From Armatimonadota bacterium (GTDB lineage: Bacteria; Armatimonadota; SYMT01): a stretch of DNA of 64,000 nt. Positions 12,173 through 62,849 of the stretch are shown here, one piece after another. The DNA is taken from the NCBI GenBank assembly GCA_041690135.1, contig JAWLHY010000009.1, positions 224,001-288,000 of the forward strand, written 5' to 3'. Positions within the stretch are counted from its first letter, which is position 1. Every line of letters begins with the position of its first letter. The notes under the pieces are model-generated. The model saw only the letters and a program-made list of their open reading frames with translations. It was not told the origin of the DNA and did no database searches. The translations under genes were made by a program, and so were the position numbers.

Positions 12173-12262
12173 TATCTCTTACCGCCGGTGCCCCACTGCC
12201 CCATGTTTCGGGGTGATTGCTCCGAAATCCCGCGGAGCCAGTGGCCCGCCCGAGGGTTGCGA

Positions 12263-35427: not shown

Positions 35428-36949
35428 GGAGCCGCGGACGAAACCTGGGCTCACGGCGGCGGCGTTGCTCACGTTGTTCGTCGGACGATGGCTGGCGCTG
35501 GGGGCCACGGTCTATTTCTCGTTCTTCCACTGGATGCGATCGGAGTACCTGGTCTTCAGCCACGTCTGGCAGTACGGCCTGCCTCTCCTCGACCCGCGTG
35601 TCACCGCCGCCCTGCTCTGGGCTCTCCAATTCTGGGTATTCCTCGTGCTGCTGGTCCTCCCTGCGGCACGCTGGCTCGCCGCCCGCCTCCCATTCCAAGG
35701 GACCGGATGGTGGCTCGCGGCCGCAGGCCTCTCGTTGGCACTCGGCACGCGCGGAGTGGTGGGGCCGTTAGTCACGCGCGCTGTGACGGCGCATCCGGTC
35801 CGCATCCTGCCCGGCGGAGGCGAGGACCTCCTTTCCCCTCTCACCGAGGTCCACCTGGCGCGCTGGATCGTGGCGCTCACGGAGGCCTGGTGGCTGGTCC
35901 CGCTGCTGGCGGTTGCCCTTCGTCAATTGGAGAACACCCCGGTTAGTTGGCTACGGCGGGGTTGGCCGCTGCTCGCCCTGCTCGGCCTGTATGCGCTTCT
36001 CCAGGCCCCGGACGCACCCTACTTGCTTACGGGAGGAGGGCCGCGGGGCGCAACTACCAACCTCCAGCTTCTCGCCTTCCAATTGGCTTTCGGCGCCCAG
36101 GAGTTCGGTTACGCCTCCGTCCTGACGACGCTACTCTGCTGTGTCGGTCTGCTCGGTGGTGGGGTCCTCCTCCGCGCGCTCCGCACGGTCCCGCCATCCG
36201 CAGAGCGGCCCGCACCAAGGTCTGTGTCACCCGGAATGGAGTGGTCGTGGGTGATGCTTCCGGCGGCAAGCCTGGTGGTGCTAGCTCTCGCCTGGAGCCG
36301 GAACCCCCCGGAAACATCCGCCGATCCCCAGTTCCCCATCCACGCACTGACCAGCTTTGCCGGCGCCATTGCGGCCGCCGGTTGGAGTGCGGTCCTGATT
36401 GCCGCTTTGTGGAACTGGATGCGGGCTGCGAGCTTCCGCCGGGTTCGGACCGCATGGGCGTTGCTGCCGGTGGTCTTCCCTCCGCTGGTCTGGGTCTTGC
36501 CGGCCGTGCGGGTACTGGGGGAGCAGCAGGGAGGCGTGGATGTGGTGGCGGGACCGGCCGGCCTGGTATTCGGCGTCCCCTACCTCTACCTGGGACTGGC
36601 GGTTCTGGCCATCGGTCGCTGCGCCGGACTCTCCGAAAGGCGGGCCATGCTTGCCGCCGGAGCGGCGGTGGCCTGGGGGACGTGGACGGATCTGACCCTC
36701 TCGCTGATGCTGACCCAACAGGCGCAGAACGTGGTCCACCTTCCGAGCGCGATGGTCTGGAATCTGTCCTTGCACCTCTGGCGTTCTCCGCTTTCCGTAC
36801 CCGGCTGGCCTATTGCCTGGCTCGGAGGCACGCTGTTTGCCCTGGCGACCCTCACTCTACTGCATGAGCGGCCCCCGCAACCGGCGGCCGCAGGAGTTGA
36901 CGATGAACTCGATGATCCCTCACAGCCGGCCTACCCTTCCCGCGCCTGA
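35417..36949 (+). CDS. Membrane protein resembling a degenerate fused carbohydrate ABC permease (MalF+MalG-like)
   Basis: YLLTGGGPRGAT..L...AF...AF...EFGYAS; second half WTDLTLSLML...LP. Confidence 0.5.
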   Translation: MESKEPRTKPGLTAAALLTLFVGRWLALGATVYFSFFHWMRSEYLVFSHVWQYGLPLLDPRVTAALLWALQFWVFLVLLVLPAARWLAARLPFQGTGWWLAAAGLSLALGTRGVVGPLVTRAVTAHPVRILPGGGEDLLSPLTEVHLARWIVALTEAWWLVPLLAVALRQLENTPVSWLRRGWPLLALLGLYALLQAPDAPYLLTGGGPRGATTNLQLLAFQLAFGAQEFGYASVLTTLLCCVGLLGGGVLLRALRTVPPSAERPAPRSVSPGMEWSWVMLPAASLVVLALAWSRNPPETSADPQFPIHALTSFAGAIAAAGWSAVLIAALWNWMRAASFRRVRTAWALLPVVFPPLVWVLPAVRVLGEQQGGVDVVAGPAGLVFGVPYLYLGLAVLAIGRCAGLSERRAMLAAGAAVAWGTWTDLTLSLMLTQQAQNVVHLPSAMVWNLSLHLWRSPLSVPGWPIAWLGGTLFALATLTLLHERPPQPAAAGVDDELDDPSQPAYPSRA

Positions 36950-38069
36950 CGAATGGGGAGGGGTGATGTCGGGACTGGCTCCCGGTTGGGTGGCCGATGG
37001 CCCATGCACCACTGCCTTTGAGAGCGCGGTGGCCGCCTATCTGGGGTGTGCGAGGGGTGTTGCAGTGAACTCCGGCACGAATGCCCTGCACCTGGCGCTG
37101 GCCGCGGCCGGGGTGAAGGCGGGCACGGAGGTGTTGATTCCCGCTTACTGTTGCGCTGCGGTTCTGAACGCCGTGCACCAGGCCGGCGCCCAGCCGGTAC
37201 TCGTCGATGCGGAGCCGGGTGGCTTCAACCTCTGCCCCCGCGATGCGCTACGGCGCCGGACCGCACAAACCCGTGCGGTGGTGGTGGCGCATCTGTTTGG
37301 AGAGCCGGCGCCCGTCGAGGCCTTCCGAGCCCTCGAGGTGCCTATCATCGAGGATTGCGCCCAGTCCCTGGGGGCCCGCCGGAAAGGTATCTACTCCGGC
37401 GGCCTGGGGGACTTTGCGATCACGTCCTTCTTCGCCACCAAGGTGATCACGACCGGACACGGGGGATTCGCGGGTGCGGCCTCCCCCGAGCGGGCGGCGG
37501 TGCTGCAGGATCTCGTGGACTACGACAACCGGGATACCTGGCAACCCCGGTTCAGCTACCGTATCAGCGAGATGCAGGCTGCCCTCGGATTGTCACAAAT
37601 TGATCAACTCCCCCGCTTCCTGCACTGCCGGCGGCAGGTCGCCGACTATTATGATGTGAGCCTGATCCAAAGGGGAGCGAGCCGGGAAGGGCTTCGCGGG
37701 CGAGGAGCGCCACTGCGGTTGACCGGGAGGGCAGAGGAGGCCGGACCGGGCGGTAGTGAACCCGCAGCGGCTGTGCATGCGGCGGCACCGGGCGAGGGAG
37801 AGACGGACCGCGAGCGCATCTTCTACCGGTACGTGCTGCGGTTACCCGACGCGGAGCGGATTATCACCGGCTTGCGAGAGCTGGGAGTAGACGCCAAACG
37901 CCCCGTTTATCGGCCGCTGCACCACTATCTGGGAGGGAGCTACCCCCACGCGGAGGCAGCGCATCGGGAGATCGTCAGTTTACCGATCTATCCCTCACTC
38001 GCTATGGCAGATGCCGAGCGGGTGGTTGCGGCGGTGCTGAAGGTCGCGGGAGAGGTTACCTCGTCCTGA
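36903..38069 (+). CDS. DegT/DnrJ/EryC1/StrS PLP-dependent sugar aminotransferase
   Basis: NSGTNALHLAL, IIEDCAQSLG, SFFATKVITTGHGG, SLPIYP. Confidence 0.92.
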   Translation: MNSMIPHSRPTLPAPDEWGGVMSGLAPGWVADGPCTTAFESAVAAYLGCARGVAVNSGTNALHLALAAAGVKAGTEVLIPAYCCAAVLNAVHQAGAQPVLVDAEPGGFNLCPRDALRRRTAQTRAVVVAHLFGEPAPVEAFRALEVPIIEDCAQSLGARRKGIYSGGLGDFAITSFFATKVITTGHGGFAGAASPERAAVLQDLVDYDNRDTWQPRFSYRISEMQAALGLSQIDQLPRFLHCRRQVADYYDVSLIQRGASREGLRGRGAPLRLTGRAEEAGPGGSEPAAAVHAAAPGEGETDRERIFYRYVLRLPDAERIITGLRELGVDAKRPVYRPLHHYLGGSYPHAEAAHREIVSLPIYPSLAMADAERVVAAVLKVAGEVTSS

Positions 38070-38498
38070 TGGTCGATTCCTTCGTGAGCGTTTGCACGGT
38101 CGGTGTCTCGGCTGTATATCGCTATGGGTTGTGGCAAGGAGACTATGCCCTGCCCTGAAATGGTCCCGGCGACCTTTTCAGCCAGCTTTAGGCATTCGGT
38201 CGGGACTTAGCATCCGGCTGCCTGCTATACTTCGGAGAAGCCGGTGACATAGCTTGCAGCCTGGGGAATGGATCGCTTTCCTCCGCTCATTCAGGGGGTG
38301 GGGTGCCCTGGGTAGGATGTTCCGAAGCCCGAAGAGCGACCGGAGCCTCGATCCCTCCTGCGTGAAGAAAGCCGGCGGATGCCGGAATGCCAGGAAGGAA
38401 AGCGGGCGTTTCGTCGCCAATCGGTATAGTGGTGGTTTCATTTCCGGAAACGGACTGGCAGAAGCTGGAATAGTCGGCCCCTAAACGTAACAAAATTT

Positions 38499-39593
38499 AT
38501 GTTCCATCTGCCTGAAGCGATAGCTACTCCCATACTGGCCTTCTGCATCGCCGCGCTCACGATGCCCGCTCTCAACCGGATTGCGGTGATGACCGGTTTC
38601 GTGGATATTCCGAACGCTCGGAAGATTCACAGCCACCCCATTCCGCTCCTGGGCGGGATTGGGGTGTATGTGGGAGTGATGCTGACGCTCTTGTTGCGGG
38701 GGGAACTCGATCCGCGCGTGATGCTGATGATGGGGGCGTCGTTCCTGGTGATGCTGTTGGGCCTCGCCGACGACCGGCTCGATCTCCATTCGCGGTATCG
38801 GCTCTTCCTCCAGGTGGCGGTGGCGTTTGCGCTCGCGCTGGCGGGGGTGCGGTTCGAGATCTTTCCGTGGGAACCGCTCAACTACGTTGTCACCGTCCTC
38901 TGGGTGGTCGGCGTTATCAACGCCATGAACTGCCTGGACTGTGCGGATGGAGCGGCAGGCGGGACATGCCTGGTCGGGTTCAGCCTGATGGCCATCCTCG
39001 CTGGACTGAACGGCCGCTTCTTCGTATGCCAGGCTTCGCTGGCGTGCGTGGGGGCGATCCTCGGTTTCCTGGTCTACAACGTGCCGCCGGCGCGGGTGTT
39101 CCTGGGAGACACCGGCAGCACCTTCCTTGGATTGATGCTCGCCGTAACCGCGGTGCTGGCGGAACCCGGACGACCCGGACGGGAATGGGAAGGACTTCTG
39201 GCTCCGTTTGCGTTGACGATCCCTGTTTTCGACATCATTTGGGTGCATTACCGCCGCTACCAGGCGGGCATCCGATCCATCCGTGACCTGCTCTCATCAA
39301 CAGGTAAAGATCACTTGCCTCATCGACTGATGGCCCGAGGGCTTTCGAAGCCTGCTTGTATGGCTGTAGTTACTTTTCTTTCCGTGTTGGCGGCTGCCAG
39401 TGTCTGGGCATTGCGGAGCGGACTGTTTCCGGTTGCTCTGATGGCCTTCGTGGCGCTGGTTGCTTTCCTGTGGCATCTGGAAGAGAACGCTCAGGTCGTG
39501 ATCCGCCCGGAAGACCGCGTTGCTGTATTTGGACTGCGGAATGAACCTGCCGCGCTCCAGACGTCTCTTCAACACGAGGAGGGTGTTGCGTGA
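38499..39593 (+). CDS. MraY/WecA/TagO-like undecaprenyl-phosphate HexNAc-1-P transferase
   Basis: D.PNARKIH..PIPLLGG, GLADD, NAMNCLD, FLGDTGS, HLPHRL. Confidence 0.92.
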   Translation: MFHLPEAIATPILAFCIAALTMPALNRIAVMTGFVDIPNARKIHSHPIPLLGGIGVYVGVMLTLLLRGELDPRVMLMMGASFLVMLLGLADDRLDLHSRYRLFLQVAVAFALALAGVRFEIFPWEPLNYVVTVLWVVGVINAMNCLDCADGAAGGTCLVGFSLMAILAGLNGRFFVCQASLACVGAILGFLVYNVPPARVFLGDTGSTFLGLMLAVTAVLAEPGRPGREWEGLLAPFALTIPVFDIIWVHYRRYQAGIRSIRDLLSSTGKDHLPHRLMARGLSKPACMAVVTFLSVLAAASVWALRSGLFPVALMAFVALVAFLWHLEENAQVVIRPEDRVAVFGLRNEPAALQTSLQHEEGVA

Positions 39594-41602
39594 AATCGTA
39601 CCGCTGGACTGGCCTCCTACAGAACCAGGTTGTCGCGATAGTGCTCGCGCTACTGGTAGTCGTGCCGATGTTGTTTGCGGCCTCTCCGGACGCACGCACG
39701 GATCAGATGACCGCATATGGTCTGCTGGGCCTGCTGCTCCTCGTGGTCTGGCTCTTCCGCACTCGGGACGAAATCAGCCTCGCAAAGGCTCGAGCATTCC
39801 TCTTTAGCGGCCCTAACCTGCCGATCGTTTTGTATTGTGCCTGGGGCATGATCTCCGTCCTGGGTAGTGCCGAACGGCTCTTCAGTCAGGTAGCCTTTAT
39901 CCAGTTGGCCTGCGGAGTGTTGCTCTATGCGATGGTGGTTTACCAGTTCCGCCATCGCGATCAGATCCGCGCCCTGCTCCACGGCTTGATCGTGGTGGGC
40001 GTTCTGATGGTGGTGACGGCGCTCTATCTGGCCCAGGATCGTCTCTTCCCGCTCGTCGGTACTTTCCACGATCGGCAGCTCTTCGGCGGCTTTCTCGCAT
40101 TGGTGCTGCCGGTCCTCATGGGCGTTGCCGCCGGAACTCGCAACGGGCGATGGAAGCTGGGCGCGCAGATATCCTGCATCCTGGTTGCCGGGGCTTTGAT
40201 CTGCACGCAGTGCCGCAGTGCCTGGATCGGACTGTCCGTAGCGGTCCTGGTCTTCATCGCTCTCGGCATGGGCTTCGTTTGGAAAGTCTCCGGCTTTCTG
40301 CGCAAGAAGCACGAGTTGCTGGTCACTCCCATTCTGGCCCTGATCGTGCTTGGGATCTTCATCGGGTTTACTCGAATGGGCGGTCCCACCATCCAGCGCC
40401 TCACGACCCTGAGTGCAATCCGCCAGGATGAAAGCGTTAAGGACCGTGTGGGACTGTGGCGAGTGGCCGTGGACGTGATCCGAGCCAACCCGTTTGTCGG
40501 GCATGGAATCGGCACCTATACGCTGGTTCAGGCGGACTACAATCCCGCCTCGCGATCGCGGGAAGTCATCCGGCAGATGGGGCCCACGCTGTCGGAGAGC
40601 CCGCACAACACCTATCTGCAGATCGCGGCCGAGTCCGGGCTGGTCGGGTTGTCGCTTTACCTGGCGATCCTGGTGCTCTTCTGCTACCGGGCCCTCATCG
40701 CTCTCCCGCGAATGGAGAAGGGACTGCGCCAGTACACGCTTATCGGCTGTATCTCGGCAGTGGTAGGGCAGAGCGTCGATGCGATCGCCAATCCCGCCTG
40801 GACCTATCCCGAGTGCACAGCGTTCTTCTGGCTGGTGCTTGGCGTGGGGATGGCGGCGGCCGGTCTGGCGCAAGAACTGCGCAGTGAGGTGCCTGCGCGC
40901 GTGGAAGCAACGGACGCTCCAGTGTTCGGGCTGCCCCGGTTCCTCTACCGTGGTGTGCGCACCGCAATGATCCTTTGCGGCGCCATCTGGCTCGGAGCGC
41001 ATCTCCTCAACCTGAACACGGCGGTGGCGGCCTCGGCTGGCGAAGTCTCCGCTAATCGCGCGCGGCCGACCTACCGACCGATTTACTGCGACCATATCAC
41101 CAAGCTGGGGCTGGACTTCCTGAACGACACGGTCAAGACCCCAACGGCGTGGAACGTGACGGCAGGCGCAACTTCCTACGACCGTCTCGCTACCTTCCAC
41201 GTGTATGCGCTCACCGACGATCCGCGCTTCTGGGCGAACGTGTCGGTGGAACGGCGGTACATCAAGTGGAAGCGCACCGGTCTGAAGGGCAAGTTCTATT
41301 ACGCCGAAACCAGTGGCGACCCCCGCTGGTTCTACAAGCCGCACATCAAAGATCGCGGCCGGACGGGAACCTTGCTGGTAACCTACAACTGCACGGCCCC
41401 CAAGGTGCGCTACCAGACCAAGTTCATCCTGACGGTTCTCCCCAACCGCGCGCCGATCGATACCTTCGGCCGCGGCGGGCAGACCCCGGGGACCTCGGGC
41501 GGCTTCGATCCGTTCAATCCGCTCATTCTGAACAACCTCAACCCGCTGATCGAAGTGCCCTCGGAATTCGAAGAGAGCACGGAGGAGGGTACCGCGGAGT
41601 AG
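39590..41602 (+). CDS. O-antigen ligase (Wzy_C) family protein with extra C-terminal soluble domain
   Basis: ~12 TM segments, TQCRSAW, RVGLW, PFVGHGIG, PHNTYLQIAAESGLVG. Confidence 0.85.
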   Translation: MKSYRWTGLLQNQVVAIVLALLVVVPMLFAASPDARTDQMTAYGLLGLLLLVVWLFRTRDEISLAKARAFLFSGPNLPIVLYCAWGMISVLGSAERLFSQVAFIQLACGVLLYAMVVYQFRHRDQIRALLHGLIVVGVLMVVTALYLAQDRLFPLVGTFHDRQLFGGFLALVLPVLMGVAAGTRNGRWKLGAQISCILVAGALICTQCRSAWIGLSVAVLVFIALGMGFVWKVSGFLRKKHELLVTPILALIVLGIFIGFTRMGGPTIQRLTTLSAIRQDESVKDRVGLWRVAVDVIRANPFVGHGIGTYTLVQADYNPASRSREVIRQMGPTLSESPHNTYLQIAAESGLVGLSLYLAILVLFCYRALIALPRMEKGLRQYTLIGCISAVVGQSVDAIANPAWTYPECTAFFWLVLGVGMAAAGLAQELRSEVPARVEATDAPVFGLPRFLYRGVRTAMILCGAIWLGAHLLNLNTAVAASAGEVSANRARPTYRPIYCDHITKLGLDFLNDTVKTPTAWNVTAGATSYDRLATFHVYALTDDPRFWANVSVERRYIKWKRTGLKGKFYYAETSGDPRWFYKPHIKDRGRTGTLLVTYNCTAPKVRYQTKFILTVLPNRAPIDTFGRGGQTPGTSGGFDPFNPLILNNLNPLIEVPSEFEESTEEGTAE

Positions 41603-41634
41603 TCTGCGGAACTTCTCTTCCATCAGGTGAATGC

Positions 41635-41663
41635 AAAGGCCGTCCCTCCCAGGGACGGCCTTT
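41635..41663 (+). terminator. Probable intrinsic terminator hairpin
   Basis: Perfect 13-bp stem AAAGGCCGTCCCT-ccc-AGGGACGGCCTTT after the ligase gene. Confidence 0.65.
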
Positions 41664-41733
41664 CTCCTGACCCGGTCCGGCTACGTCGCACTAATGGAGA
41701 CGTCACAGCTCCCTTCCCGTTACTGAGATTCTC

Positions 41734-42294
41734 ATGCAGCGTGTCGAAACCTCTCTCCCAGGCGTCTACGTCCTGGAGCCCCGAGTCTTCCAGGACGCCC
41801 GGGGTTTCTTTCTTGAGACTTACCACCGGCAGAAGTTCGCGGAACTGGGCATCAAGGCCGATTTCGTGCAGGACAACCATTCCCGTTCTCAGCGGGGGAC
41901 GCTGCGCGGACTTCACTACCAGCTCCATCACCCGCAGGCAAAGCTCTGCCGGGTGGTTCTCGGTTCCGTACTCGACGTGGCCGTGGACATCCGGCGCAAC
42001 TCTCCCACCTTCGGGCGTTGGGTCGCGGTCGAATTGACAGCGGAGAACAAGCGACAGATCTTCATTCCCGCCGGCTTTGCCCACGGATTCGTCGTCCTGT
42101 CGGAGGCCGCCGAATTCCTCTACAAGTGCGACGAGTTCTATCATCCCGAGGACGAGCGGGGGATTGCCTGGAACTGTCCCACCCTGGGAATCGACTGGGG
42201 GATCCAGGAGCCGCTCCTGTCCGTGAAAGACCAGCGCAACCCCACCCTGGGCGACGTGGACCCGGACCAACTCCCTACCTATTTCCCCATGTAG
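41734..42294 (+). CDS. rmlC: dTDP-4-dehydrorhamnose 3,5-epimerase
   Basis: DARGFF.E, VQDNHSRS..GTLRGLHYQ, DVAVDIR..SPTFG, GFAHGF. Confidence 0.96.
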   Translation: MQRVETSLPGVYVLEPRVFQDARGFFLETYHRQKFAELGIKADFVQDNHSRSQRGTLRGLHYQLHHPQAKLCRVVLGSVLDVAVDIRRNSPTFGRWVAVELTAENKRQIFIPAGFAHGFVVLSEAAEFLYKCDEFYHPEDERGIAWNCPTLGIDWGIQEPLLSVKDQRNPTLGDVDPDQLPTYFPM

Positions 42295-42364
42295 TTCCAA
42301 TTCTGGCGATGCCGACACAGGCTCTCTACGTAAGTAGTGATGAAGGTGGGAGGATCGTGCGACG

Positions 42365-43258
42365 ATGTTAGATTCGCTGGGACGGGAGCAAGAGGGCCGG
42401 ATCCGCTTCGGGATTGCCGCGGACCTGTACGTGCGCAACGTACTGGACCTGTGCGATGCCGCGCACGTCGCCGGCATGAGTCCCGAGGCCTTCGAGGAAC
42501 AACTGACCTCGAGCTTCCCGCGTACGACGGGAGTTTCGGCCGTGCTGGCGCCTCGCGACCCCGACACGCCCCTCCTGTCGGTCGTCATTCCCGTCTTCAA
42601 TGAGCGTCGCACCTTTCTGCAGTTGCTGGAAGCCGTTCGTGCCGTTCCGATTGCCAAAGAGATCATCATTGTCGATGACTGCTCGCTAGACGGCACGCGG
42701 GAAATGCTGCAGGAACAGGTGGACGGTAAGATCGCCGGCGTCCGCGTGGTTTACCAGAAGGTAAACCAGGGAAAGGGCGCGGCCCTTCGCCGCGGGTTTG
42801 CCGAAGCCCGGGGCGACATCGTCCTGGTTCAGGATGCGGACCTGGAATATGATCCGCGCGAGTACCCACAGCTCCTCGAGCCGATCCTGGAGGGGAAGGC
42901 GGATGTGGTTTACGGTTCTCGCTTTCAGGGTGGACCGCACCGGGTGCTCTACTTCTGGCACTCGGTGGGCAACCGCTTTCTTACCACCCTGTCGAATATG
43001 TTCACGGACCTGAACCTGACGGACATGGAAACCTGTTACAAGGTCTTCCGCCGGGAGGTCATCCAGCAGGTTCCCCTGCGCCAGAACCGCTTCGGCTTCG
43101 AGCCGGAGGTCACTGCCAAAGTCGCCCGGCGGGGCTGGCGCATCTACGAGGTGCCGATCAGCTACGCTGGCCGGAGCTACGCGGAAGGGAAGAAAATCGG
43201 CTGGAAGGATGGTTTCCAGGCGATCTGGTGCATTTTGCGGTACGCGCGCCTCGATTGA
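42365..43258 (+). CDS. DPM1-like GT2 with N-terminal UPF0175-like helical domain
   Basis: [43 protein letters not shown]; N-terminal AADLY...[14 protein letters not shown]. Confidence 0.88.
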
Positions 43259-43633: not shown

Positions 43634-45646
43634 TTAGCGCAGCCATCCGCTCATGATCTGGGCGATGCCTCCCGGTGTTACCGATGGGTGCACATGGAGG
43701 TCTTTCTCTTTATCCAGAGCACGGTACACCTGGCGGGGCCACGCGTACGCCTGTTCGATCTCGGCTGGTGTCGCCGGGGTGCCGTCGAGCCGGAAAGGGG
43801 CGGCCACGGCCACCGGTCGGGGGGCAGCCAGTGCGGCCAGATGGGGGAGATCGCCGGCTTCCATCAGCCGGGGGCTGAAGAGACCCATCCGTACACTATC
43901 GGGGACGTGGCCACCCGTGAACGAAAGTGCGGGCTCGATGCCGGCGGAGCCTTGCAGGCGCGGGTCCAGGGCCGCGGTAAGGTAGGCCGCCAGCGCTCCC
44001 TCTCGCCAGCCGAGCACGGCAAACCGTTCGATTCCCCGTGGCTCCAACGCAGTCATCAGTTGCCGGAGGTCCAGCACCCACTGACCGAGGAGCGGACGAC
44101 CGATCCAGAGCGACCATTCTACGAGGTTGTGGTCCGGAATGGCGTCGCCCAGCGCCTGGCCGGGGAGAGTAAGCGATCCACAGCCCCTTAGCTCCAGGGC
44201 GCGCGTATGGATTCCCGCCTCGCGCAACGCCGCGGCAACAGGAGAGTTCAACGCCGCTTCTAAACCCGCCGGATGCAGCAGGAGCACCGCGGCCCTACCT
44301 CGTGCTTCACCGGTACCGCGAAGCGCCGCCGTCGGAATCCGGACGCCCTCTTCCGGTTCGAGTTCATCGATCGTGTAAGGTTCAGCCGGCCGGCCCTCAT
44401 GCAGGCGCGCTTTGCCCGGGCTTGGAGGGAGGGCCAGCACGTCCCGTAGTGTTCGCAACCGGCCGTCCCGCAGCTTTCCCCAGCCGTTCCTGGTCACTGG
44501 TTGCGAGGCGGCCTCCGCCAGCTCCTGACTGCGATTTCGCACCCAAGCCGCGGTGGTCATTACCTTCCCGGACCGGAACGGCGGGCTGTAACAGCGGAGA
44601 GCTTCCGGGTCCTCGGTCAGGATCGCCGGCTCAGGTGTGGGGGAGCCGTCCCCTTCTCCTTTCAACCACCGCCTCATCCAGCCGTACATCGCCTCCCGCA
44701 TTTCCTGGTTGTAGGCGTGCCCCGATTCGACAATCACGTGCCGCACCTTCGCATCCGTACCATGCGCGTGGAAGTAGGGACGGGCGCGGTCGAGCGCCTG
44801 GGCGGCGATCGTGGGGCCGAAGTGCGGGACGTCGCGACTCGCGGTGATGACCATCAGGGCCCGCGGCGCCACCATCCCCAGGAGATCGCCCTCTTCGGCA
44901 AAGGTGAGACCCCCCAGCAGCACTTCATCCACGCAGCAGGCCGCGGTGAGGTAAGAGGTGAAGGTGCCGACGCTGCACACCGGGACCGCGCACTGGATGC
45001 GTTCGTCGAAGGCACTGAGATACGTGGTCTGGTTCCCCCCGCCGCTGGCGCCGGTGCAGCCCAGGCGCTGCCCATCCACGTCCCGCCGAGACTGGAGGTA
45101 GTCCAGGGCACGGATGTTGTCGTACAACTGCAGGCCGTGCAGAGGAGTGCCGATGGGCCAGAGGCTAGCCCCTAGTAGGCCGCCGTGGTACTCGTTCTGA
45201 CCGATCTCCGTCCCCCGCTCCCCGGCGCCCCAGGCGTCGAGGGTCAGCGCCACGAAACCGAGCTTGGCCAGCCCGACGCAGCGGCTCTGGACGACCGGGT
45301 CGCGCCGGGCACCCGGCCAGTGACCATGCACGCACAGCACTGCCGGAAAGGGGGCTTTGCCGCGAGTAGGAACGTAACAGCTCGCCGTCGCGTAGCAGCC
45401 CACTCGGGTCTGGAAGATCAGCTTTTCGATCCGGTACCCATCCCGTTCCAGGGTGCCTAACACCTCCGGTTGCAAAGGCGCCTTCTCCGCCGGCCAGGTG
45501 CCCTCTGCGACCAGGATGCGGGCGCGGATCTCGGCCCCCCGTCGCGAGGCCTCCTGGGTGGAACGAGGGGCAGGATCACTTTCGCGCAGGGCGCGGGCGG
45601 CGTCGAGGTACCAGTTCTTCAGGCGGTCAACAGCAGTGGCTTCCAT
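43634..45646 (-). CDS. Tandem alpha/beta hydrolase (acetyl-xylan-esterase-like)
   Basis: VHGHW, GASGGG nucleophile elbow, APRAL, HAYN; second, degenerate hydrolase domain (GWREGA). Confidence 0.8.
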   Translation of the reverse strand: MEATAVDRLKNWYLDAARALRESDPAPRSTQEASRRGAEIRARILVAEGTWPAEKAPLQPEVLGTLERDGYRIEKLIFQTRVGCYATASCYVPTRGKAPFPAVLCVHGHWPGARRDPVVQSRCVGLAKLGFVALTLDAWGAGERGTEIGQNEYHGGLLGASLWPIGTPLHGLQLYDNIRALDYLQSRRDVDGQRLGCTGASGGGNQTTYLSAFDERIQCAVPVCSVGTFTSYLTAACCVDEVLLGGLTFAEEGDLLGMVAPRALMVITASRDVPHFGPTIAAQALDRARPYFHAHGTDAKVRHVIVESGHAYNQEMREAMYGWMRRWLKGEGDGSPTPEPAILTEDPEALRCYSPPFRSGKVMTTAAWVRNRSQELAEAASQPVTRNGWGKLRDGRLRTLRDVLALPPSPGKARLHEGRPAEPYTIDELEPEEGVRIPTAALRGTGEARGRAAVLLLHPAGLEAALNSPVAAALREAGIHTRALELRGCGSLTLPGQALGDAIPDHNLVEWSLWIGRPLLGQWVLDLRQLMTALEPRGIERFAVLGWREGALAAYLTAALDPRLQGSAGIEPALSFTGGHVPDSVRMGLFSPRLMEAGDLPHLAALAAPRPVAVAAPFRLDGTPATPAEIEQAYAWPRQVYRALDKEKDLHVHPSVTPGGIAQIMSGWLR

Positions 45647-45757
45647 ATCGGTGACTCAAATGGGGTGAAGGCAGCGAGTCAGGGTTCGGCGGAGGGTGCC
45701 ATGCACGTACTTGCGCGCCGGTAGAGGGCGGAGAAAGCGGATTTGGGATCATCCAGA

Positions 45758-45772
45758 GGGACCGACGGTCCC
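45758..45772 (-). promoter_or_regulatory. Putative bacterial SECIS hairpin
   Basis: GGGACC-GUC-GGUCCC starting 11 nt after the in-frame UGA; loop begins with G. Confidence 0.6.
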
Positions 45773-45774
45773 AG

Positions 45775-46251
45775 CTATCGACATCAGCCACCCTTGAGCT
45801 TGATCGGCTTGGGAAACCGGTTCTCGACCCGGTATTCCTCGGCCGGGAACCCGAGGTTACGGCAGACGGTGAGGAACTGCGGCAGCTTCGCACGGCGCGG
45901 GTCGTAATCCACTACCGCCAGTCCGATGCGGGCATCGACCACGGCTGACTGAACCCCGGGGACCTGGCAGAGGGCGCTGGAAACCGACTGGGCGTTGGCA
46001 GTTGTCTCAAGGTCGGAGATTTCCAGCGCAACCTTCTCAACTCGCGTGGACTGAGGTTTTCCTGCCGATAGTTTTGTTGCCGGAGTACGGACCGTACGGG
46101 ATGCAGGTCTGTTCCTCTTTGCCGGCTTGCGTGTTGCCGCGCTCGCATCGGGCGTTCTTCCGGCGCCCAGGCTACCGGCAGTAATCACGAGAGCCAGGCA
46201 AACTTGATGGTACTGTACCCAAACGCGGCGGGTTCTTTTCACTTGCGCCAC
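45775..46251 (-). CDS. Exported HMA (heavy-metal-associated)-fold protein; candidate selenoprotein ending GG-U-C-R (ends at 45784 if UGA is a stop)
   Basis: Signal-like N-terminus; LEISDL...VSSAL.QVPGV.SAVVD...AVVDYDP HMA pattern without CxxC; GGT GGC TGA TGT CGA TAG. Confidence 0.7.
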
Positions 46252-46347: not shown

Positions 46348-47646
46348 CTACATCGCCGTGTGCGGCCCGCGTGCCAGCGCCTCGCGCAAAGCATTGCTCC
46401 GACGCGTGCAGTGGATTTGCCAGTCCGACGAAGATTTGCCGCCAGCCGGTTTGAGCTCGAAGAACTGGGGTCGCTTGAGGACTTCCGTCAGCCGGTGTTG
46501 GAGGGCGTAGTGTGCATAGAGGCCGAGGGTCACATCCGCCGGGGCCGACAGTTCGCGTTCGGTGAGAGCGCAGCCGATGGTTGCCAGGCAGATCGCTACC
46601 TGACCCTGATATTCGACGTTGAGCGCTCCTTCGATGCCCTGCCAGCCCAGGTGGCCGAACATGGCCCAGAAGCCGAGTTGTGACAGGGCCATTTGCTTTA
46701 CGGCGCTCAACAGCAGCCGGCCCTGGCTTTTTCGGAGCGACTGGGCGAGGGCGGTCCAGAGGTCTTTCCGCACCGCCTCGAACTCCGCGCGCGCGATCCG
46801 GTAGCCATCCGCCATCGCGGGGTCAGCGACCGGGGCGGTCCCGCTCCCGCCTTCCAGCCCCAGCAGTTGGCCCAACCGGAGCAGGCGCTGCTCGGCGGCG
46901 TCCGTGGCCAGGGCGCGGAACTGAAGCGCCTGCACCACCGGCTCGTCGGCGTAAACGGTGAGCCCATCGTAGCCAAGGGCACGGGTAATGGAAGTGAAGT
47001 GCCGGTAAGCGGGGTGAGAGGCGATCTTGTCCGCCGCCTCGCTGATCGGCGCCAGGCCCGGCACGTCGCGGAGGTGCTTCGCTTCGATCCGGATGTTGGA
47101 GGGGCTCCGTGGCCCGACCTGGACGCGGACTCCCGGTAGTTCGACAGTTACGCCGCGATCAGCAAGCCACTCCGCCTGTTTGGCGATAGGGTCCCAGGCG
47201 TTCGTATCCGGCCCCAGGTGTGGTCGCGTGGCCAGTTCCAGAAAGGCATCGCGGTAGAGGTCGCGCCGGCGGTTCCGATCTCGGAGGGTGAGGGGACGCG
47301 GACCGTAGAGCCGGAAAGCGTTCGCCGGGCGGTGGATGGCCGTCGGCACCCGGAGGGTAATGAACGCTCCGCGGTTGTCTTTGATCCGGATGCTGCCCAC
47401 TTCATCCCGGACACCGCTAAGGAGGCGGAGGCTTTCCGGGCTCGCCGTCAGAACGGACGCTTCCTTGGCCGGAGGCGCGGGGTCCCCAGGGCTGGAAGCC
47501 TTCTCCGACTCCTCGCTGCGGGCAGTGGTCTCGGCGGGTTGCGTCAGCGCCGGCGTGGTGGGTGAAGTGGGTTCAATTTGAGCCTGCGCGGCGGCCGGTC
47601 CGGCCACCGCGAGTGCGATCGCATAGATCCAGAAATAACGACTCAT
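46348..47646 (-). CDS. Hypothetical exported protein
   Basis: Signal peptide MSRYFWIYAIALAVAGPAAA, Pro/Thr-rich linker, GGGAGGG SD. Confidence 0.7.
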   Translation of the reverse strand: MSRYFWIYAIALAVAGPAAAQAQIEPTSPTTPALTQPAETTARSEESEKASSPGDPAPPAKEASVLTASPESLRLLSGVRDEVGSIRIKDNRGAFITLRVPTAIHRPANAFRLYGPRPLTLRDRNRRRDLYRDAFLELATRPHLGPDTNAWDPIAKQAEWLADRGVTVELPGVRVQVGPRSPSNIRIEAKHLRDVPGLAPISEAADKIASHPAYRHFTSITRALGYDGLTVYADEPVVQALQFRALATDAAEQRLLRLGQLLGLEGGSGTAPVADPAMADGYRIARAEFEAVRKDLWTALAQSLRKSQGRLLLSAVKQMALSQLGFWAMFGHLGWQGIEGALNVEYQGQVAICLATIGCALTERELSAPADVTLGLYAHYALQHRLTEVLKRPQFFELKPAGGKSSSDWQIHCTRRSNALREALARGPHTAM

Positions 47647-47945
47647 CGATTCCCTCCCGGCACGACGGCTTGCGTCTGCTGTTGCTCCCTGAATTCTACC
47701 CCGGTTGCCGTCTGGATTCCGACGCGGCGTCGGAGACCGCATCAACTACCTACCGGAGGACTGCACCCTGATGAAGGACGACGAACCCTAGTGGCGCGCT
47801 CGCTGCCCAATGCCAACTTGCCTCTCTTATGTACGAGTGAAGGACCTTCTGTTGAGGGCGGCCAACGAATCGGCAAAGGTCGGGAAGACCGTACCCAGGG
47901 CTAGCCATGCTGCGAAGTTGCCCAGGGGAAACCAATTGGAGGTCA

Positions 47946-56339: not shown

Positions 56340-58343
56340 TTACTTGACGGCGTCGACGAGCTTGCGCACGGCATTCAGGTCGAGCTTGCCGTAGCCCCAG
56401 CGGGGGTTGGGCACGCTCCCGGTGAAGCGATCGCTGGTGGCGCTGCGTTCCAGCAGCTTCTTGATTTCTCCGCTCGTGAGGTCGCGCTTCTTCTCCATCA
56501 TCAGGGCAATGACTCCGGAAAGATACGGAGTGGCGGCACTGGTGCCGTTGAAGGGCTGGTAGAGGCCCGAAATGTGAAGCAGCTTGTCCCCGCCGGTTTG
56601 GGTCGGCGCGGGCGCGATATGGAATTGACCCGGCGCGGCGATCTCCGGCTTCAGCGTGCCGGTGCGGCTGGGTCCGGGGCAACTGTAGCTGGAAAGCCCC
56701 CCGATGACCAGCGGGGACGGCTTGCCGTCGGAAGTGGTCCGGATCACGTCACCCAGGATCAGCTTTCCGCGCTTGGATTCGAACTCGTTATTCCAGTCGT
56801 AGCTGCCGACTGTGATAGCGCTGGCGGTCGTGCCGGGAGTGCCGACCTGTTTGCCCAGGCTGACGCAGGGACCCGTGAACACCGCGCGACTTTTCGATCC
56901 GAAGGCGGAGATGTAGGCATCCGCCTTCCGGGATGCGCCGGTGGGGCTGAAGAGGCGGAGCTCACCGGCTCCAGGCTGAAGGTCGATCGACCAGACGAGC
57001 TGCTTGGTGAGCGGGTGAATGCGCCCCCGTCCCTTCCGCAGGTCGAGCTTCGACTCCAGGTTGGTGCGCAGGGACACCTGTTTATCATCGCTGTCGAAGT
57101 AGACGTCCAGCGTGGCCGCCACGGCGTCGGCGGGAACGCTCCAGGTGAAGATGCCAGGAGAACTCTCGCCGGCAAACGAGACCTCGCCGTGGATAGCGTC
57201 GGCGCCGTCGTTTCCGGCGGCGATGCAGAGCGCCCGGCCAGGACGGTCCGGCGCGTAACGGGCACTGAGTTGTCGCTCCAACACCCGCTGACCGTCCCTG
57301 CCGCCGAGCTGGCCGCCGAAGCTACAGGAGACCACAGTCGGACGGGGGCCGGTCACCGCATCGATCCAATTGGCGATGGCGCCCATCAGGTAGGAGTTCG
57401 GGAGCCCCGGTCCGGGGCCGATCCGCACCCCGATGATATCGGCATTCGGCGCCACTCCGGTGTAGCGGCGGTCCGGCAGGGCCTGCCCGTTGCCGGCCGC
57501 GATCCCGGCGCAACTCGTACCATGGCCGTTGGTGTCCAGCGGAGCGATGGTGGGTGAGGGTTCTCGCAGCGCCGCGGTCAGGTCTTCCTGGGTGTAGACT
57601 GTGCCCAGGCCCCGCCCGTTCTGGAAGGCGACCGGGCCCTGCCGCCCCGGCTTACCGGGTTCCCAGTCCGTCATCGTATCCCAATAGTGGGTGATGCGGG
57701 AGATGGGCTTGCCGGTGGCGTCCTTGGTGATGAAGTCCGGGTGGCGGAAGTCGATGCCCGAGTCGACAACCGCCACGACCACACCCCGGCCGGTGAGCCC
57801 GGAGAGGCCGCCGCGAACGATCGGCTCTGCGGGCGCTCGGCTAACGGCGGTGCGGGTTTCCGGCGGCGGGGGCACAGTGACCCGGCGGCCGAGTTCCACC
57901 CAGACCACGCCGGGCGCCGTGGTTACACTCTTGAGGGCGCTCGCCTCTTTCGTGTCGACAAACACGTCGGCCCACTTCTCGAAACGGTTGAAGACCCGGA
58001 CCCCGGGGGCGTTGAGCTTGCTGCAGGACTCCGCGGAATCGAATTCCGCATGGGCGACCAGATAGGTGCTGTTCTCCTGCTGCGTCGTGGCGCCGTCCGC
58101 GGCAGGTCCCGTGGGAGGGGCACCGGCCTGGAGCGCCTGGGCGACCCCGGCATCCGCAGGGGAAAGCTGACCGGGGGTATTTCCCATGGCTAGCGGGACC
58201 ACAGGTCCCAGGGTCCGTTTGAGCCCGGCGCCCCTGGACGTCTTCGTGCCGGCCGGAGGGGCGGCTTTGGGCGCGGCGCCGGCCACACCGGCAACAGCCA
58301 GGGCAGCACAGAGGATAGCAGGTTTGCAGGTTCGGTGCTTCAA
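56340..58343 (-). CDS. Secreted S8 (subtilisin-like) serine peptidase
   Basis: Signal peptide; catalytic VVDSG, HGTSCAG, AAGN, GTSAATP; inserted beta domain. Confidence 0.92.
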   Translation of the reverse strand: MKHRTCKPAILCAALAVAGVAGAAPKAAPPAGTKTSRGAGLKRTLGPVVPLAMGNTPGQLSPADAGVAQALQAGAPPTGPAADGATTQQENSTYLVAHAEFDSAESCSKLNAPGVRVFNRFEKWADVFVDTKEASALKSVTTAPGVVWVELGRRVTVPPPPETRTAVSRAPAEPIVRGGLSGLTGRGVVVAVVDSGIDFRHPDFITKDATGKPISRITHYWDTMTDWEPGKPGRQGPVAFQNGRGLGTVYTQEDLTAALREPSPTIAPLDTNGHGTSCAGIAAGNGQALPDRRYTGVAPNADIIGVRIGPGPGLPNSYLMGAIANWIDAVTGPRPTVVSCSFGGQLGGRDGQRVLERQLSARYAPDRPGRALCIAAGNDGADAIHGEVSFAGESSPGIFTWSVPADAVAATLDVYFDSDDKQVSLRTNLESKLDLRKGRGRIHPLTKQLVWSIDLQPGAGELRLFSPTGASRKADAYISAFGSKSRAVFTGPCVSLGKQVGTPGTTASAITVGSYDWNNEFESKRGKLILGDVIRTTSDGKPSPLVIGGLSSYSCPGPSRTGTLKPEIAAPGQFHIAPAPTQTGGDKLLHISGLYQPFNGTSAATPYLSGVIALMMEKKRDLTSGEIKKLLERSATSDRFTGSVPNPRWGYGKLDLNAVRKLVDAVK

Positions 58344-58692
58344 CGAGACTCTCCTGAAAGGGTACGGAAGGCCGGCCGACTCCTATCATCAGCCCAGCGC
58401 ACGGAGGCGTGCTGAATGGTGTTACTGATTATCGGATGCCATGCTCTTTTTATGAACGCCGGAGTGGCTCGATCCGGCGAGGGATCTCGATATCAACCGA
58501 CAAATCCAACCCACAAGTGTTCCCAAATCCGTGGTGTGTCAGTGGGTGGCGGAGGTTGGATGGGGGCAGTAATGTGGAAGTTACATCCTGCTTTCGGTGG
58601 ATTTGACCCCGGAGCATTGCAACCGTATACTTCCGTGCAGAGGAGGCGCCGGCCTCCCGGCTGGTAGCGCAAAGCAAAGGGTGGTCGTCGAG

Positions 58693-59241
58693 ATGATTGA
58701 GAGTTATATGTCCTGGGAAGGCGGGGTGGATCTGGTAGGCAGCACGGATCCGAACTCCGCACAACCCAATGTCATCATCCACGTGGCGCGCGTGGTTCAC
58801 ACTCCCGTCGGTTCCGCGCCATCCGGACTGGTTCTTTTCCAGCCGGACCCGGCGGCGCCACCCGCCGTGATAGGGTTTGTATCGGCCGATTCCACGGTGG
58901 GTGCCTATTTTGGACCGCACATCTTCGCAGGCACCCCGTTCGAGGCCGCGCCGGTACTGGAAGCGGAGATCCAGATCCAGGAAGACCTGCCAGGAACTGT
59001 CGGAGCGCGGGTCCGTGTGGGTAATTACCTCTTCGAGACACGCCTGTCGCAACTGGCTCCGCTGGAAGTCGTGCACCGGCCCGCGCAGCACTTGCCGTTC
59101 CTCCAGCAGGGGTTGGAAGCGGCCGCCGGCTCCGTGGAAGTCCGGGTGAACGGGAACGCGACTCAGGTGTTCGTTCCCCAAGTGGGGATGTCCGGCGGCC
59201 CAGGTGCTGTCTGGGCGCCGTGCGGCGTCTACGCCCGCTAG
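58693..59241 (+). CDS. Hypothetical protein
   Basis: 182-aa ORF with high-GC3 codon use and beta-rich pattern; convergent overlap with the CHAT gene. Confidence 0.65.
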   Translation: MIESYMSWEGGVDLVGSTDPNSAQPNVIIHVARVVHTPVGSAPSGLVLFQPDPAAPPAVIGFVSADSTVGAYFGPHIFAGTPFEAAPVLEAEIQIQEDLPGTVGARVRVGNYLFETRLSQLAPLEVVHRPAQHLPFLQQGLEAAAGSVEVRVNGNATQVFVPQVGMSGGPGAVWAPCGVYAR

Positions 59242-62200: not shown

Positions 62201-62462
62201 CCACGCCGCGGTCCGCCGCCAGTTCCTGGGTCAGGTAGGTCCAGAATTCCTGGTTGAGAGCCCGGTCCGCGATCATCCAGCGGAACGCCTCTGTCTGGTC
62301 TCGCCGCGCGAACGCTTCGAGGAACCGCTCAACGGCGGTGCGTTGAGCCATCTCCGCCGTCGTCTGGGCCGGCAGCGGTCCGACGAGCGTCAGGATGAGA
62401 AGAACGGCAAAAAGGCTAGCAAACATGCCGGAGTACCGGGGACCATCTGCCAAGCGGACCAT
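59238..62462 (-). CDS. Exported TPR-CHAT (caspase-like) protease
   Basis: Signal/TM, TPR array, HFATHG and MSACET catalytic dyad, HPYYWAPF. Confidence 0.93.
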   Translation of the reverse strand: MVRLADGPRYSGMFASLFAVLLILTLVGPLPAQTTAEMAQRTAVERFLEAFARRDQTEAFRWMIADRALNQEFWTYLTQELAADRGVELRHSRFRIQSDDGEVAFGRIRLDWKTKDPKNGAPVEGAQTLDLRFVFEAGAWKLHGFRMAERHFYQSFLKAASPADRHALLDRNSDLAGGWLPYSLRGEANKLADAGKPEEADRFVELSFEAAEWMKSDFERAYCYLIRGYVRRKQLQWNVALRDNEQARQLFEKLQDDEGLAKIWRNSAHIYSTTANYDKAFKAYNLAIEHFRKIKDAPEEAAALQDLGLAQQYSGKPTDALTSYQTALELQRKLGNRRTQAILIGNIAAVQQDLQRYAEALRGYEEARRIFQEIDDFTAEGPILTNLGNLYQVVGRFAEANEALRAAVQLARKLGRKEDELIAQHNLTVYLLERNQLDEAMESGFASAKLASELKNDRFLPQIWSNLGEVGVRMEAWNAARDAYREMLDAARANRHRGMEAMATMGLAVVDLRERRQPDYRAAAARHFETAAAMAAEAGASAVLQMIRIHQGDLYRDWKNYPQAAIHLRQAVELIEQIRTQAEVGSLQTSFLRLHASVYLKLADSYLKVGDTAQAFAVSEQFKARALVDVLRSGNVRLTRSMTPEQKGREASLESRLASLSTAIDKTVLTDALEKLTEERNQVRSDLQAFRERLFLQLPDLRTRRAEFSPAAPQELLTKLLAASPKSALLSYLVLDRETLLFVLHHDKRGQPRIELYRSSVTRSQLANRVDEHWQGCSTPGGDYEAAGRWLFQRLIAPAAPALAGKEHLIVVPDTELSTLAFAALLDSGATPLAAKYAISYAPSATALLRMTEMLQRRPARGDRLPLVAFGSPVFPTRLPELPAAAGEVNAISRHFGSGAVVLTGERALESRAHELLRRARFAHFATHGMLDPSAPMFSSLVLTGDGRHDGFLQARELAEMELSADLVVMSACETALGQKVRGEGILGLTWALFAGGAAGTVASHWQVADESTGALMTAFYRELAKERERQPQSRAEALRQAQLSLLRGKKYTHPYYWAPFALLGQWRSLPASN

Positions 62463-62849
62463 AAGCCGTTTCCTTCCTAACCCACCATCGGCCGGCACGA
62501 CCCCTCGCTCTGGCCACCGGAGTTTCCGGGGGCGCCATCCCGGTTCCTCAATCCCCAGGACTTCGCCAGGGCCATGCCCCGAGAATCTTTCGCTGCTCCC
62601 ACGCCGGATGGTTCCCACACCACTTACCAATATGGCTGCACCACGGGCGACCTATAGCTTGGGGAGTAACGACCCTACCGTTGCAACTTACAACTGCAGG
62701 GAGAGACGCTTCCTTCCTGAGAAGGGAAGCTCTTATCCACCGATGAACGGCTATCTGCAGGCTCCATTTGTGCTTAAGATTAAAGTATTTCGCATATTGA
62801 TTGACTATGCACCAATTCTATTGCGAGTAGGAATAGATCTGGTCCGTTA

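Follow-up and report, generated by a model that had tools for sequence, protein, structure and literature searches.

Bacterial selenoproteins with an HMA-type domain, and others that carry selenocysteine (Sec) at the very end of the chain, have both been described, and the family table of a 2026 review lists canonical-site HMA-type selenoproteins, a 2Fe-2S 'CopZ family', SaoC (CU-COOH), KCU-star, UXX-star and GUXX-star (PMC13188914). Here we consider a gene that brings these two features together. It lies on the minus strand of a stretch of 64,000 nucleotides from the genome of an Armatimonadota bacterium (contig JAWLHY010000009.1, positions 224,001 to 288,000), which we call the window, and with an in-frame UGA read as Sec its product would be an exported protein with an HMA fold and the C-terminus Gly-Gly-Sec-Cys-Arg. 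From our analysis it would be logical to conclude that the gene very probably encodes a real selenoprotein, and there is good reason to regard it, beyond that, as the likely founding member of a family not described before, in a phylum that is little studied.

The 'UxxU metal-binding (seleno)protein' NF041115 and the 'MerT/CopZ fusion-like selenoprotein' NF045683 share with the window protein the ferredoxin-like HMA fold and a Sec residue presumed to be a soft-metal ligand; they hold this residue at the CxxC position of loop 1, whereas here that site is lost and Sec stands in the C-terminal tail. MerP (1osd, 1afi) is likewise small, with a signal peptide and a single HMA domain, and is the best structural match, but it binds mercury through GMTCxxC, which is absent here, and no mer genes occur among the neighbours scanned. 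SaoC, KCU-star/DUF466 and UXX-star/GUXX-star have Sec within three residues of the C-terminus, so that their selenocysteine insertion sequence (SECIS) must lie in the 3' untranslated region (UTR), and the same holds for the protein described here. SaoC, as its authors present it, is exported, ends in Cys-Sec and has a 7-bp stem with a GGU loop past the stop (Haft and Gwadz, bioRxiv 10.1101/2022.07.06.499078). With its signal peptide, vicinal Cys/Sec pair and G-led triloop it is the nearest architectural precedent, with no sequence relation; SaoC and KCU-star have the order Cys-Sec and possess Cys-Cys homologues, whereas here the order is Sec-Cys and no Cys homologues are known from our searches. 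The layout U-x-x-stop of UXX-star (NF041114, NF041211 and NF041212, named as in the table of PMC13188914) corresponds to U-C-R-stop of the window protein. UXX-star proteins are, however, glutaredoxin-like, and their models are not among the matches of our protein at E<=1.

Pairs of chalcogen residues at a C-terminus are also familiar from other proteins, such as animal thioredoxin reductase, whose C-terminal arm is Gly-Cys-Sec-Gly, and MerA, which ends in Cys-Cys. In SelS the penultimate residue is Sec, a bond connects Cys174 with Sec188, and the protein is membrane-associated with a disordered region before Sec (PMC3628699). All of these resemble the window protein in that two chalcogen residues, vicinal or nearly so, sit on a flexible C-terminal tail that contains Gly, but they either serve a flavin or dithiol site of the same enzyme or are eukaryotic with a eukaryotic SECIS. 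The window protein, by contrast, lacks a catalytic partner domain, has the order Sec-Cys and begins with a signal-peptide-like segment that points to export.

No model of NCBIfam release 20.0 covers the family, and at E<=1 the C-terminal-Sec families are all missing from the matches; the best match is NF041115 with 28.1 bits against a cut-off of 95, and TIGR02052 (MerP) and NF045683 reach 23.8 bits (cut-off 92.55) and 17.6 bits (cut-off 375). The family table of the 2026 review holds no HMA-fold protein with a C-terminal U-C-(R/K) (PMC13188914), the literature search returned no description of an HMA-fold selenoprotein with a C-terminal Sec, and the main texts of deep-Sep (PMC12013277) and BSepDB (PMC13326102) contain no HMA, heavy-metal or CopZ entry. 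We regard the family as probably new, though Haft & Tolstoy 2025 (mSystems) or the supplementary family tables of deep-Sep and BSepDB may already list it. The sequence comparisons support placing it among the bacterial selenoproteins, with an HMA fold and a tail of the UXX-stop type, uncommon in its 3'-UTR SECIS, its lack of a Cys homologue and its predicted export. If this is true, a selenoprotein family would be added that is absent from NCBIfam release 20.0 and from the table of the 2026 review (PMC13188914), a natural bacterial SECIS would be working wholly from the 3' UTR at about the minimal spacing, and the chemistry of a metal-chaperone fold would have shifted from the CxxC loop to a C-terminal Sec-Cys pair.

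Conservation across the UGA codon and the downstream hairpin

The minus strand of the window reads AAG GGT GGC TGA TGT CGA TAG, followed by CT and by GGGACC GTC GGTCCC, and with TGA taken as Sec the open reading frame (ORF) has the C-terminus ...FPKPIKLKGG-U-C-R-stop. The stem of the hairpin has 6 bp, the loop is GUC, and they begin 11 nt and 17 nt after the UGA. The original prediction, which was made from the sequence alone, had given the same sequence, hairpin and distances, and all of them came out identical when re-measured by a script. The longest open frame of the gene begins at GTG 46323 and an alternative start is GTG 46242, besides the start used in Table 1. The motif GGN-GGN-TGA-TGY-(R/K)-stop has this single occurrence in the 9.1-Mb genome.

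Relatives were collected at the DNA level with a pattern that encoded FPKP[IV]KLKGG alone and put no constraint on what follows, because the feature under test must not be selected for. Scans of this pattern across genome and metagenome collections, together with protein searches of related genomes, gave a set of eight loci, namely the window, G001, G002 and the loci L047, L048, L049, L050 and L051, with L045 and L046 being duplicates of G002. The proteins of the seven other loci are 42-50% identical to the window protein. Among 41 related genomes the protein search recovered two true homologues, those of G001 and G002, which belong to the same taxonomic family as the window and to different genera; both align through the last residue with one TGA inside, and both read RFPKP[IV]KLKGG-TGA-TGY-CGN-TAG and then a hairpin with a GTC loop, the stems of which differ from each other and are complementary nevertheless.

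In every one of the eight loci the first stop is TGA, preceded by a GGN codon, the codon after it is TGT or TGC and thus always Cys, and the second codon is CGA, CGC, CGT, AAG or AAA, which is always Arg or Lys. The final stop, found at exactly the next codon, is TAG in three loci, TAA in three and TGA in two (L047 and L048); none of the eight has a GG-TAA or GG-TAG ending, and beyond the hairpin the alignment among the loci is lost. A Cys codon that varies at the wobble position, a basic residue written by five codons, and stops of three kinds, all kept in frame, indicate that this is translated sequence and not an RNA motif.

A search for related loci that started from the single protein gave no relative, and one that started from alignment A1 gave only the contigs of G001 and G002, to which two DNA-pattern scans of the whole genome-contig collection led again, with nothing further. 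Of 401 sampled genomes of the phylum three have the family, all from one taxonomic family, and metagenomes contribute about 50 further protein clusters. A weak match in G004 that also contains an in-frame TGA was rejected, being an ordinary CxxC HMA protein and not a family member.

At the protein level the databases give the picture which is to be expected if annotation stops at the UGA, as had been predicted for this gene. A profile search of 5.8 billion proteins returned 55 matches, among which 52 end exactly with ...K[LI][KT][GS]G (48 of these with KLKGG), two are fragments and one belongs to the ordinary HMA proteins. HMMER, run exhaustively on 1.84 billion representatives, returned 27 family-level matches (E < 1e-19), 25 of which stop at profile position 163 of 166, at their own last residue, the other two being fragments; the next matches below them are ordinary multi-HMA proteins with CxxC. 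Not a single one of the 55 profile matches or of the 27 family-level representatives extends past GG, and longer or fused forms of the family were not found, which is weak evidence. A look-up of the ORF, translated with table 11, in the Atlas gave scores of <=0.82 only, which tell little. The few named members are labelled 'copper chaperone CopZ' or 'HMA domain-containing protein', and since annotation cuts them at GG, their likely active site is invisible to the databases.

The hairpin is present in 8/8 loci with a stem of 5-8 bp and a loop that starts 16-18 nt past the UGA, the loops being GUC in six loci, GGC in one and CGGGC in one; in L049 and L051 only, the stem runs on beyond a bulged U. 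On the alignment 94.1% of the stem cells are paired, and this falls to 33-54% when the 3' partners are slid by 1-3 columns. Double-sided changes occur in six of seven stem pairs, and the observed covariation score was reached by none of 500 shuffles; the slight misplacement of L047 in this alignment makes these figures, if anything, too low. The bacterial SECIS consensus, in the form in which the review states it, combines a stem of 4-16 bp with a loop of 3-9 nt that has G in its first two positions, and asks for a spacing of 16-37 nt from the UGA and a minimum free energy (MFE) of <= -7.5 kcal/mol (PMC13188914), and all eight loci agree with these published constraints, with MFE values from -10.9 to -17.1. 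For comparison, 1.6% of the 189,979 TGA triplets of the genome are followed, at this spacing, by a G-led loop on a stem of 6 bp or more, and so are 1.5% of the 22,986 TGAs that close frames open for at least 100 codons. Folding of the 81-nt region as a single sequence is unremarkable (z = -1.14), so that the case for the hairpin rests on comparison and not on thermodynamics.

Rfam has no family for the hairpin region and gave two chance-level matches only (E 1.6 and 5), and neither a T-run nor terminator-like or promoter-like sites were seen at the hairpin. The following gene of G001 and G002 begins some 30-40 nt past the stop, again with no T-run, and in L047 and L048 the hairpin is retained where the 670-aa hydrolase found downstream in the window is absent. 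It means that the element is neither tied to this neighbour nor a classical terminator. The hairpin resembles the SECIS of the E. coli fdhF type in its short upper stem-loop at about 11 nt past the UGA and in the G and then U that open the apical loop; it differs in lying entirely outside the coding sequence and in having a triloop smaller than the fdhF loop, and the bulged U is found here in L049 and L051 only.

The genome is also equipped for Sec insertion. It contains selA (481 bits), a SelB-specific wing domain (82 bits) and selD (370 bits), the last with its own in-frame TGA within K-C-G-G-U-A-S-K and, some 33 nt further downstream, a stem of 8 bp that bears a GUG triloop, and tRNA-Sec is the sole tRNA with a UCA anticodon that aragorn reported among 71 tRNAs. 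The genes for SelA, SelD and tRNA-Sec are adjacent, outside the window (G000:C1:1149693-1152363, loci L001 and L005), and SelA is present in 8/8 genomes of the order, G001 and G002 included; its nearest named relatives bear the label Armatimonadota.

Another small ORF of this genome, glutaredoxin-like and located at G000:C5 ~361700-362000 (L053), carries an in-frame TGA within ...T-Q-P-G-U-P-P-C..., and 23 nt past this UGA there is a hairpin of 8 bp with a GUU loop; the ORF matches NF041211 with 32.6 bits, the cut-off being 100, and is probably a further selenoprotein of the genome. Judging by the GUG and GUU triloops on the 8-bp stems of selD and of this ORF, GC-rich short stems with G-U-N triloops seem to be the SECIS style of the organism.

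Absence of Sec machinery, homologues that close at GG with TAA or TAG, and loss of the downstream Cys codon or of the hairpin had been named in the original prediction as findings that would speak against it. What we found is the complete set of selA, selB, selD and tRNA-Sec, TGA as the first stop in all eight loci, and the Cys codon and hairpin kept in all eight, with synonymous or conservative codon changes and compensatory changes in the stem. It had also pointed to two kinds of homologue worth looking for: the one with Cys aligned to the UGA (GGCC) was not found in the libraries searched, whereas the one with conserved UGA-UGY and a hairpin is represented by every locus of the set.

The exported HMA-like protein and its C-terminal tail

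A charged n-region before an uncharged run (median 17 residues) is seen in 30 of 32 full-length members, and many of these runs end, by eye, in an AxA-like motif. The pattern points to a cleavable signal peptide of the Sec export type. AlphaFold2 (AF2), run on the 45-sequence family alignment, gave a beta-alpha-beta-beta-alpha-beta domain over residues 72-139 (E72-78, H84-95, E100-106, E111-116, H123-132, E137-139) with block means of 97-98 over 71-140, and its confidence in the tail drops to 87 and then to 68 over the last 8 residues. The top Foldseek match of this model is MerP 1osd (TM 0.94, target-normalised; rmsd 1.0), followed by HMA domains of ATPases and by CopZ; there are 48 PDB matches at E<=0.001, and among the matches listed all are HMA-type metal-binding domains or metallochaperones. 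Pfam HMA matches 41 of 45 family members at E<=0.01, the best E being 2.8e-9.

At the position of the GMxCxxC loop the window protein has D-L-E-T-T-A-N, and the family consensus has no Cys there. When a canonical HMA paralogue from the same genome is aligned, its C-E-G-C falls onto E-T-T-A, which bears out the earlier claim that the CxxC site has been lost (DLETTANAQS); the signal-peptide-like N-terminus and the basic linker, also noticed at that stage, were seen across the family. The most conserved stretch of the protein is the tail E-Y-R-V-E-x-R-F-P-K-P-I-K-L-K-G-G, in which R145, P147, P149 and G155 are invariant in the family alignment, and E143, F146, K148, K151, L152, K153 and G154 are conserved at >=90%.

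The HMMER search also returned P0067, a protein of 249 aa in which three HMA repeats with the canonical CxxC are followed by a vicinal Cys-Cys at the end of the chain, ...G-C-C-L. With its HMA body and C-terminal chalcogen pair it can be called an analogue built on sulfur only, and its tail is not homologous.

We propose that SelB with Sec-tRNA(Sec) would bind the hairpin while the ribosome stands at the UGA, and Sec would be inserted; two more residues would then be added before the stop, which lies 2-5 nt before the stem, and the product would end ...KLKGG-Sec-Cys-Arg-COOH. The SECIS would thus act entirely from the 3' UTR, at about the shortest spacing that the published consensus allows (PMC13188914), and in L047 and L048 the UGA that serves as the second stop would lie too near the loop for recoding. 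Once the protein is exported, its HMA-like body and basic tail may present the vicinal Sec-Cys pair on a Gly-Gly hinge, and this pair, hypothetically, serves as the working site in the periplasm.

As to what the site may do, given Sec, the chance is somewhat short of even for the capture or transfer of soft metals or metalloids (Hg, Cu(I), Ag, Cd, As(III)), an analogy suggested by the MerP-like fold, by Sec as a metal ligand in the UxxU HMA selenoproteins and by the C-terminal Cys-Cys of MerA. Cycling as a selenenylsulfide redox arm, for which thioredoxin reductase and SelS provide the analogy, seems distinctly less probable, and some other function, again given Sec, is only slightly less likely than that.

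Weighing the alternatives

Several points weigh against the selenoprotein proposed here and against the functions considered for it. The absence of a Cys homologue (GG-C-C) from either protein library is the main formal weakness, since alignment of Sec with Cys is the usual, though not strictly defining, criterion. The eight loci do not count as independent, being related; the tails of L049 and L051 are identical, and one taxonomic family includes the window, G001 and G002. Only two residues follow the UGA, which makes the protein-level conservation past it short, and the distance from UGA to loop sits at the lower edge of the 16-37 nt range (PMC13188914). The window protein itself scores 22.1-22.5 bits against Pfam HMA (PF00403), where the gathering cut-off is 24.8. 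With respect to function, the helix-2 Cys, which is common in the family and could be a partner of the tail, is replaced by Ser in some members, and there are no metal, redox or selenium genes nearby among the neighbours scanned, so that the genomic context is of no help.

The question whether Sec is inserted at all has two other possible answers. The UGA may be an ordinary stop, in which case the protein would end ...KLKGG and the conserved nine nucleotides with the hairpin would make up an RNA element, be it a stabiliser, a processing site, a terminator or a regulator of the gene that follows. Such a reading draws on the frequency of TGA in a GC-rich genome, where it closes the 22,986 long frames counted above, on database entries that end at GG with no Cys homologue, and on the hairpin of L047 and L048, which stands in a terminator-like place between convergent genes. 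Yet an RNA element would not keep a TGY codon in frame, Arg or Lys by five codons and a stop of three kinds; the stem sequence is free to change while its distance from the UGA is fixed; there is neither a T-run nor an Rfam match; and the close next gene in G001 and G002 makes termination there unlikely. We consider an ordinary stop improbable. It would be still harder to defend that the UGA is read by a near-cognate tRNA (Trp or Cys), or is reassigned, with no selenocysteine involved. Any read-through would explain the protein-level constraint on the downstream codons, but the sole UCA anticodon belongs to tRNA-Sec, long frames of this genome end in TGA by the tens of thousands, leakage has no need of a covarying hairpin of the SECIS consensus at a fixed distance, and TGY or TGG variants, expected if Cys or Trp were acceptable, were found in neither protein library. 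The chance of this is very small.

Insertion of Sec into the window protein is thus the reading we keep, and two further alternatives concern the purpose of the tail. It may be a redox arm in which Sec and Cys close an eight-membered selenenylsulfide ring; a thiol system of the periplasm would reduce this ring, and the arm would in turn reduce an oxidised substrate. Adjacent Sec and Cys on a Gly-Gly hinge at a flexible C-terminus (AF2 68 over the last 8 residues) would suit such a role, most bacterial selenoproteins are redox proteins according to the review (PMC13188914), the penultimate Sec of SelS takes part in a selenosulfide bond (PMC3628699), and the canonical metal site is gone. No thioredoxin-fold, flavoprotein, DsbD-like or CcdA-like partner is present, however, in any of the eight neighbourhoods, the scaffold has the fold of a metal chaperone, with the periplasmic MerP as its best structural match, and the order of the pair is U-C against C-U in thioredoxin reductase, which leaves Sec insertion combined with a redox arm a doubtful option, if a serious one. 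One can also imagine the C-terminal peptide as a substrate that the neighbouring hydrolase cleaves or modifies, releasing or attaching a Sec-containing peptide. The tail is indeed the most conserved part of the protein, and in 6/8 loci the gene directly downstream codes for a hydrolase that weakly matches Peptidase_S9 and AXE1, but the small protein has a signal peptide and the hydrolase has none, the nearest solved relatives of the enzyme are carbohydrate esterases, its orthologues in three other genomes have no such gene upstream, and L047 and L048 are without it. Such a role for the tail has hardly any probability.

We may even suggest, with considerable reserve since it is rather improbable as a whole, a Sec-only exported family in which the metal-chaperone fold would be a mere carrier of a mobile Gly-Gly-Sec-Cys arm active in the periplasm, with no flavin or thioredoxin-fold partner in the same protein and with selenium indispensable. 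Bacteria would then have their own counterpart to the Sec arms at the C-termini of thioredoxin reductase, selenoprotein S and selenoprotein K, and its chemistry might be to capture Hg, Cu(I) or As(III), for example, or to detoxify an oxidant at the cell surface. Apart from this reading, the very absence of a Cys homologue suggests that Sec may be chemically indispensable here, and such a case, being rare, would help in asking why selenium is used by proteins at all.

Gene layout and neighbourhood

Table 1. Positions of the predicted selenoprotein gene, its parts and the downstream gene, in coordinates of the window
Feature	Position	Strand	Remark
Alpha/beta-hydrolase, 670 aa, esterase-like, no signal peptide	43634..45646	-	Downstream of the selenoprotein gene; Pfam Abhydrolase_7, AXE1, Peptidase_S9
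SECIS-like hairpin GGGACC-GUC-GGUCCC	45758..45772	-	Wholly 3' of the predicted true stop
Predicted true stop TAG	45775..45777	-	In-frame stop at exactly that codon in 8/8 loci
Cys and Arg codons TGT CGA, residues 157-158	45778..45783	-	Translated only if the UGA is decoded
UGA, very probably read as selenocysteine, residue 156	45784..45786	-	TGA in 8/8 loci
Tail ...RVENRFPKPIKLKGG, residues 141-155	45787..45831	-	Most conserved stretch of the family
Coding sequence expected from standard annotation	45787..46251	-	155 codons, GTG 46251, ends ...RFPKPIKLKGG
HMA-fold domain without CxxC metal site, residues 71-140	45832..46041	-	Pfam, AF2, Foldseek, paralogue alignment
Linker rich in Arg, Lys, Pro and Ala, residues 32-70	46042..46158	-	Low conservation (alignment A3); AF2 block means 53-76 over 31-70
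N-terminal signal-peptide-like segment, residues 1-31	46159..46251	-	Basic n-region KRTRR, then 15 uncharged residues

The hydrolase of Table 1 was considered as an obligatory partner of the selenoprotein and rejected. Its orthologues (56-62% identity) in G003, G005 and G006 are preceded by other genes or by nothing recognisable, with no selenoprotein gene upstream, and it lacks a signal peptide. L048 has no hydrolase nearby, and in L047 there is only an unrelated exported hydrolase on the other strand. Taken together, the orthologues without the gene and the two loci without this hydrolase suggest that the pairing is inherited synteny and not a functional couple. The nearest solved sequence of the enzyme is 6goc, of the esterase type and containing a DUF3826 domain. 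It belongs to an expanded family of paralogues, with six matches in the genome of the window and eight in G002 (E<=1e-30).

Directly upstream of the selenoprotein gene, at 46348-47745 on the minus strand, is an ORF of 465 aa with a signal-peptide-like start, which is matched neither by Pfam nor by NCBIfam and lacks a counterpart in the other seven loci. The wider neighbourhood consists of polysaccharide-synthesis enzymes, esterases, TPR proteins, a subtilase and a CHAT protein. Envelope polysaccharide genes occupy 36813-43255 on the plus strand and encode a DegT-type aminotransferase, a Wzy_C membrane protein resembling O-antigen ligases and a glycosyltransferase of family 2; further upstream in the window, 12188-14080 encodes a carbamoyltransferase and 23747-25759 an asparagine synthase, and at 56343-62630 on the minus strand a subtilase (Peptidase_S8, 667 aa) adjoins a TPR-CHAT protein of 1130 aa.

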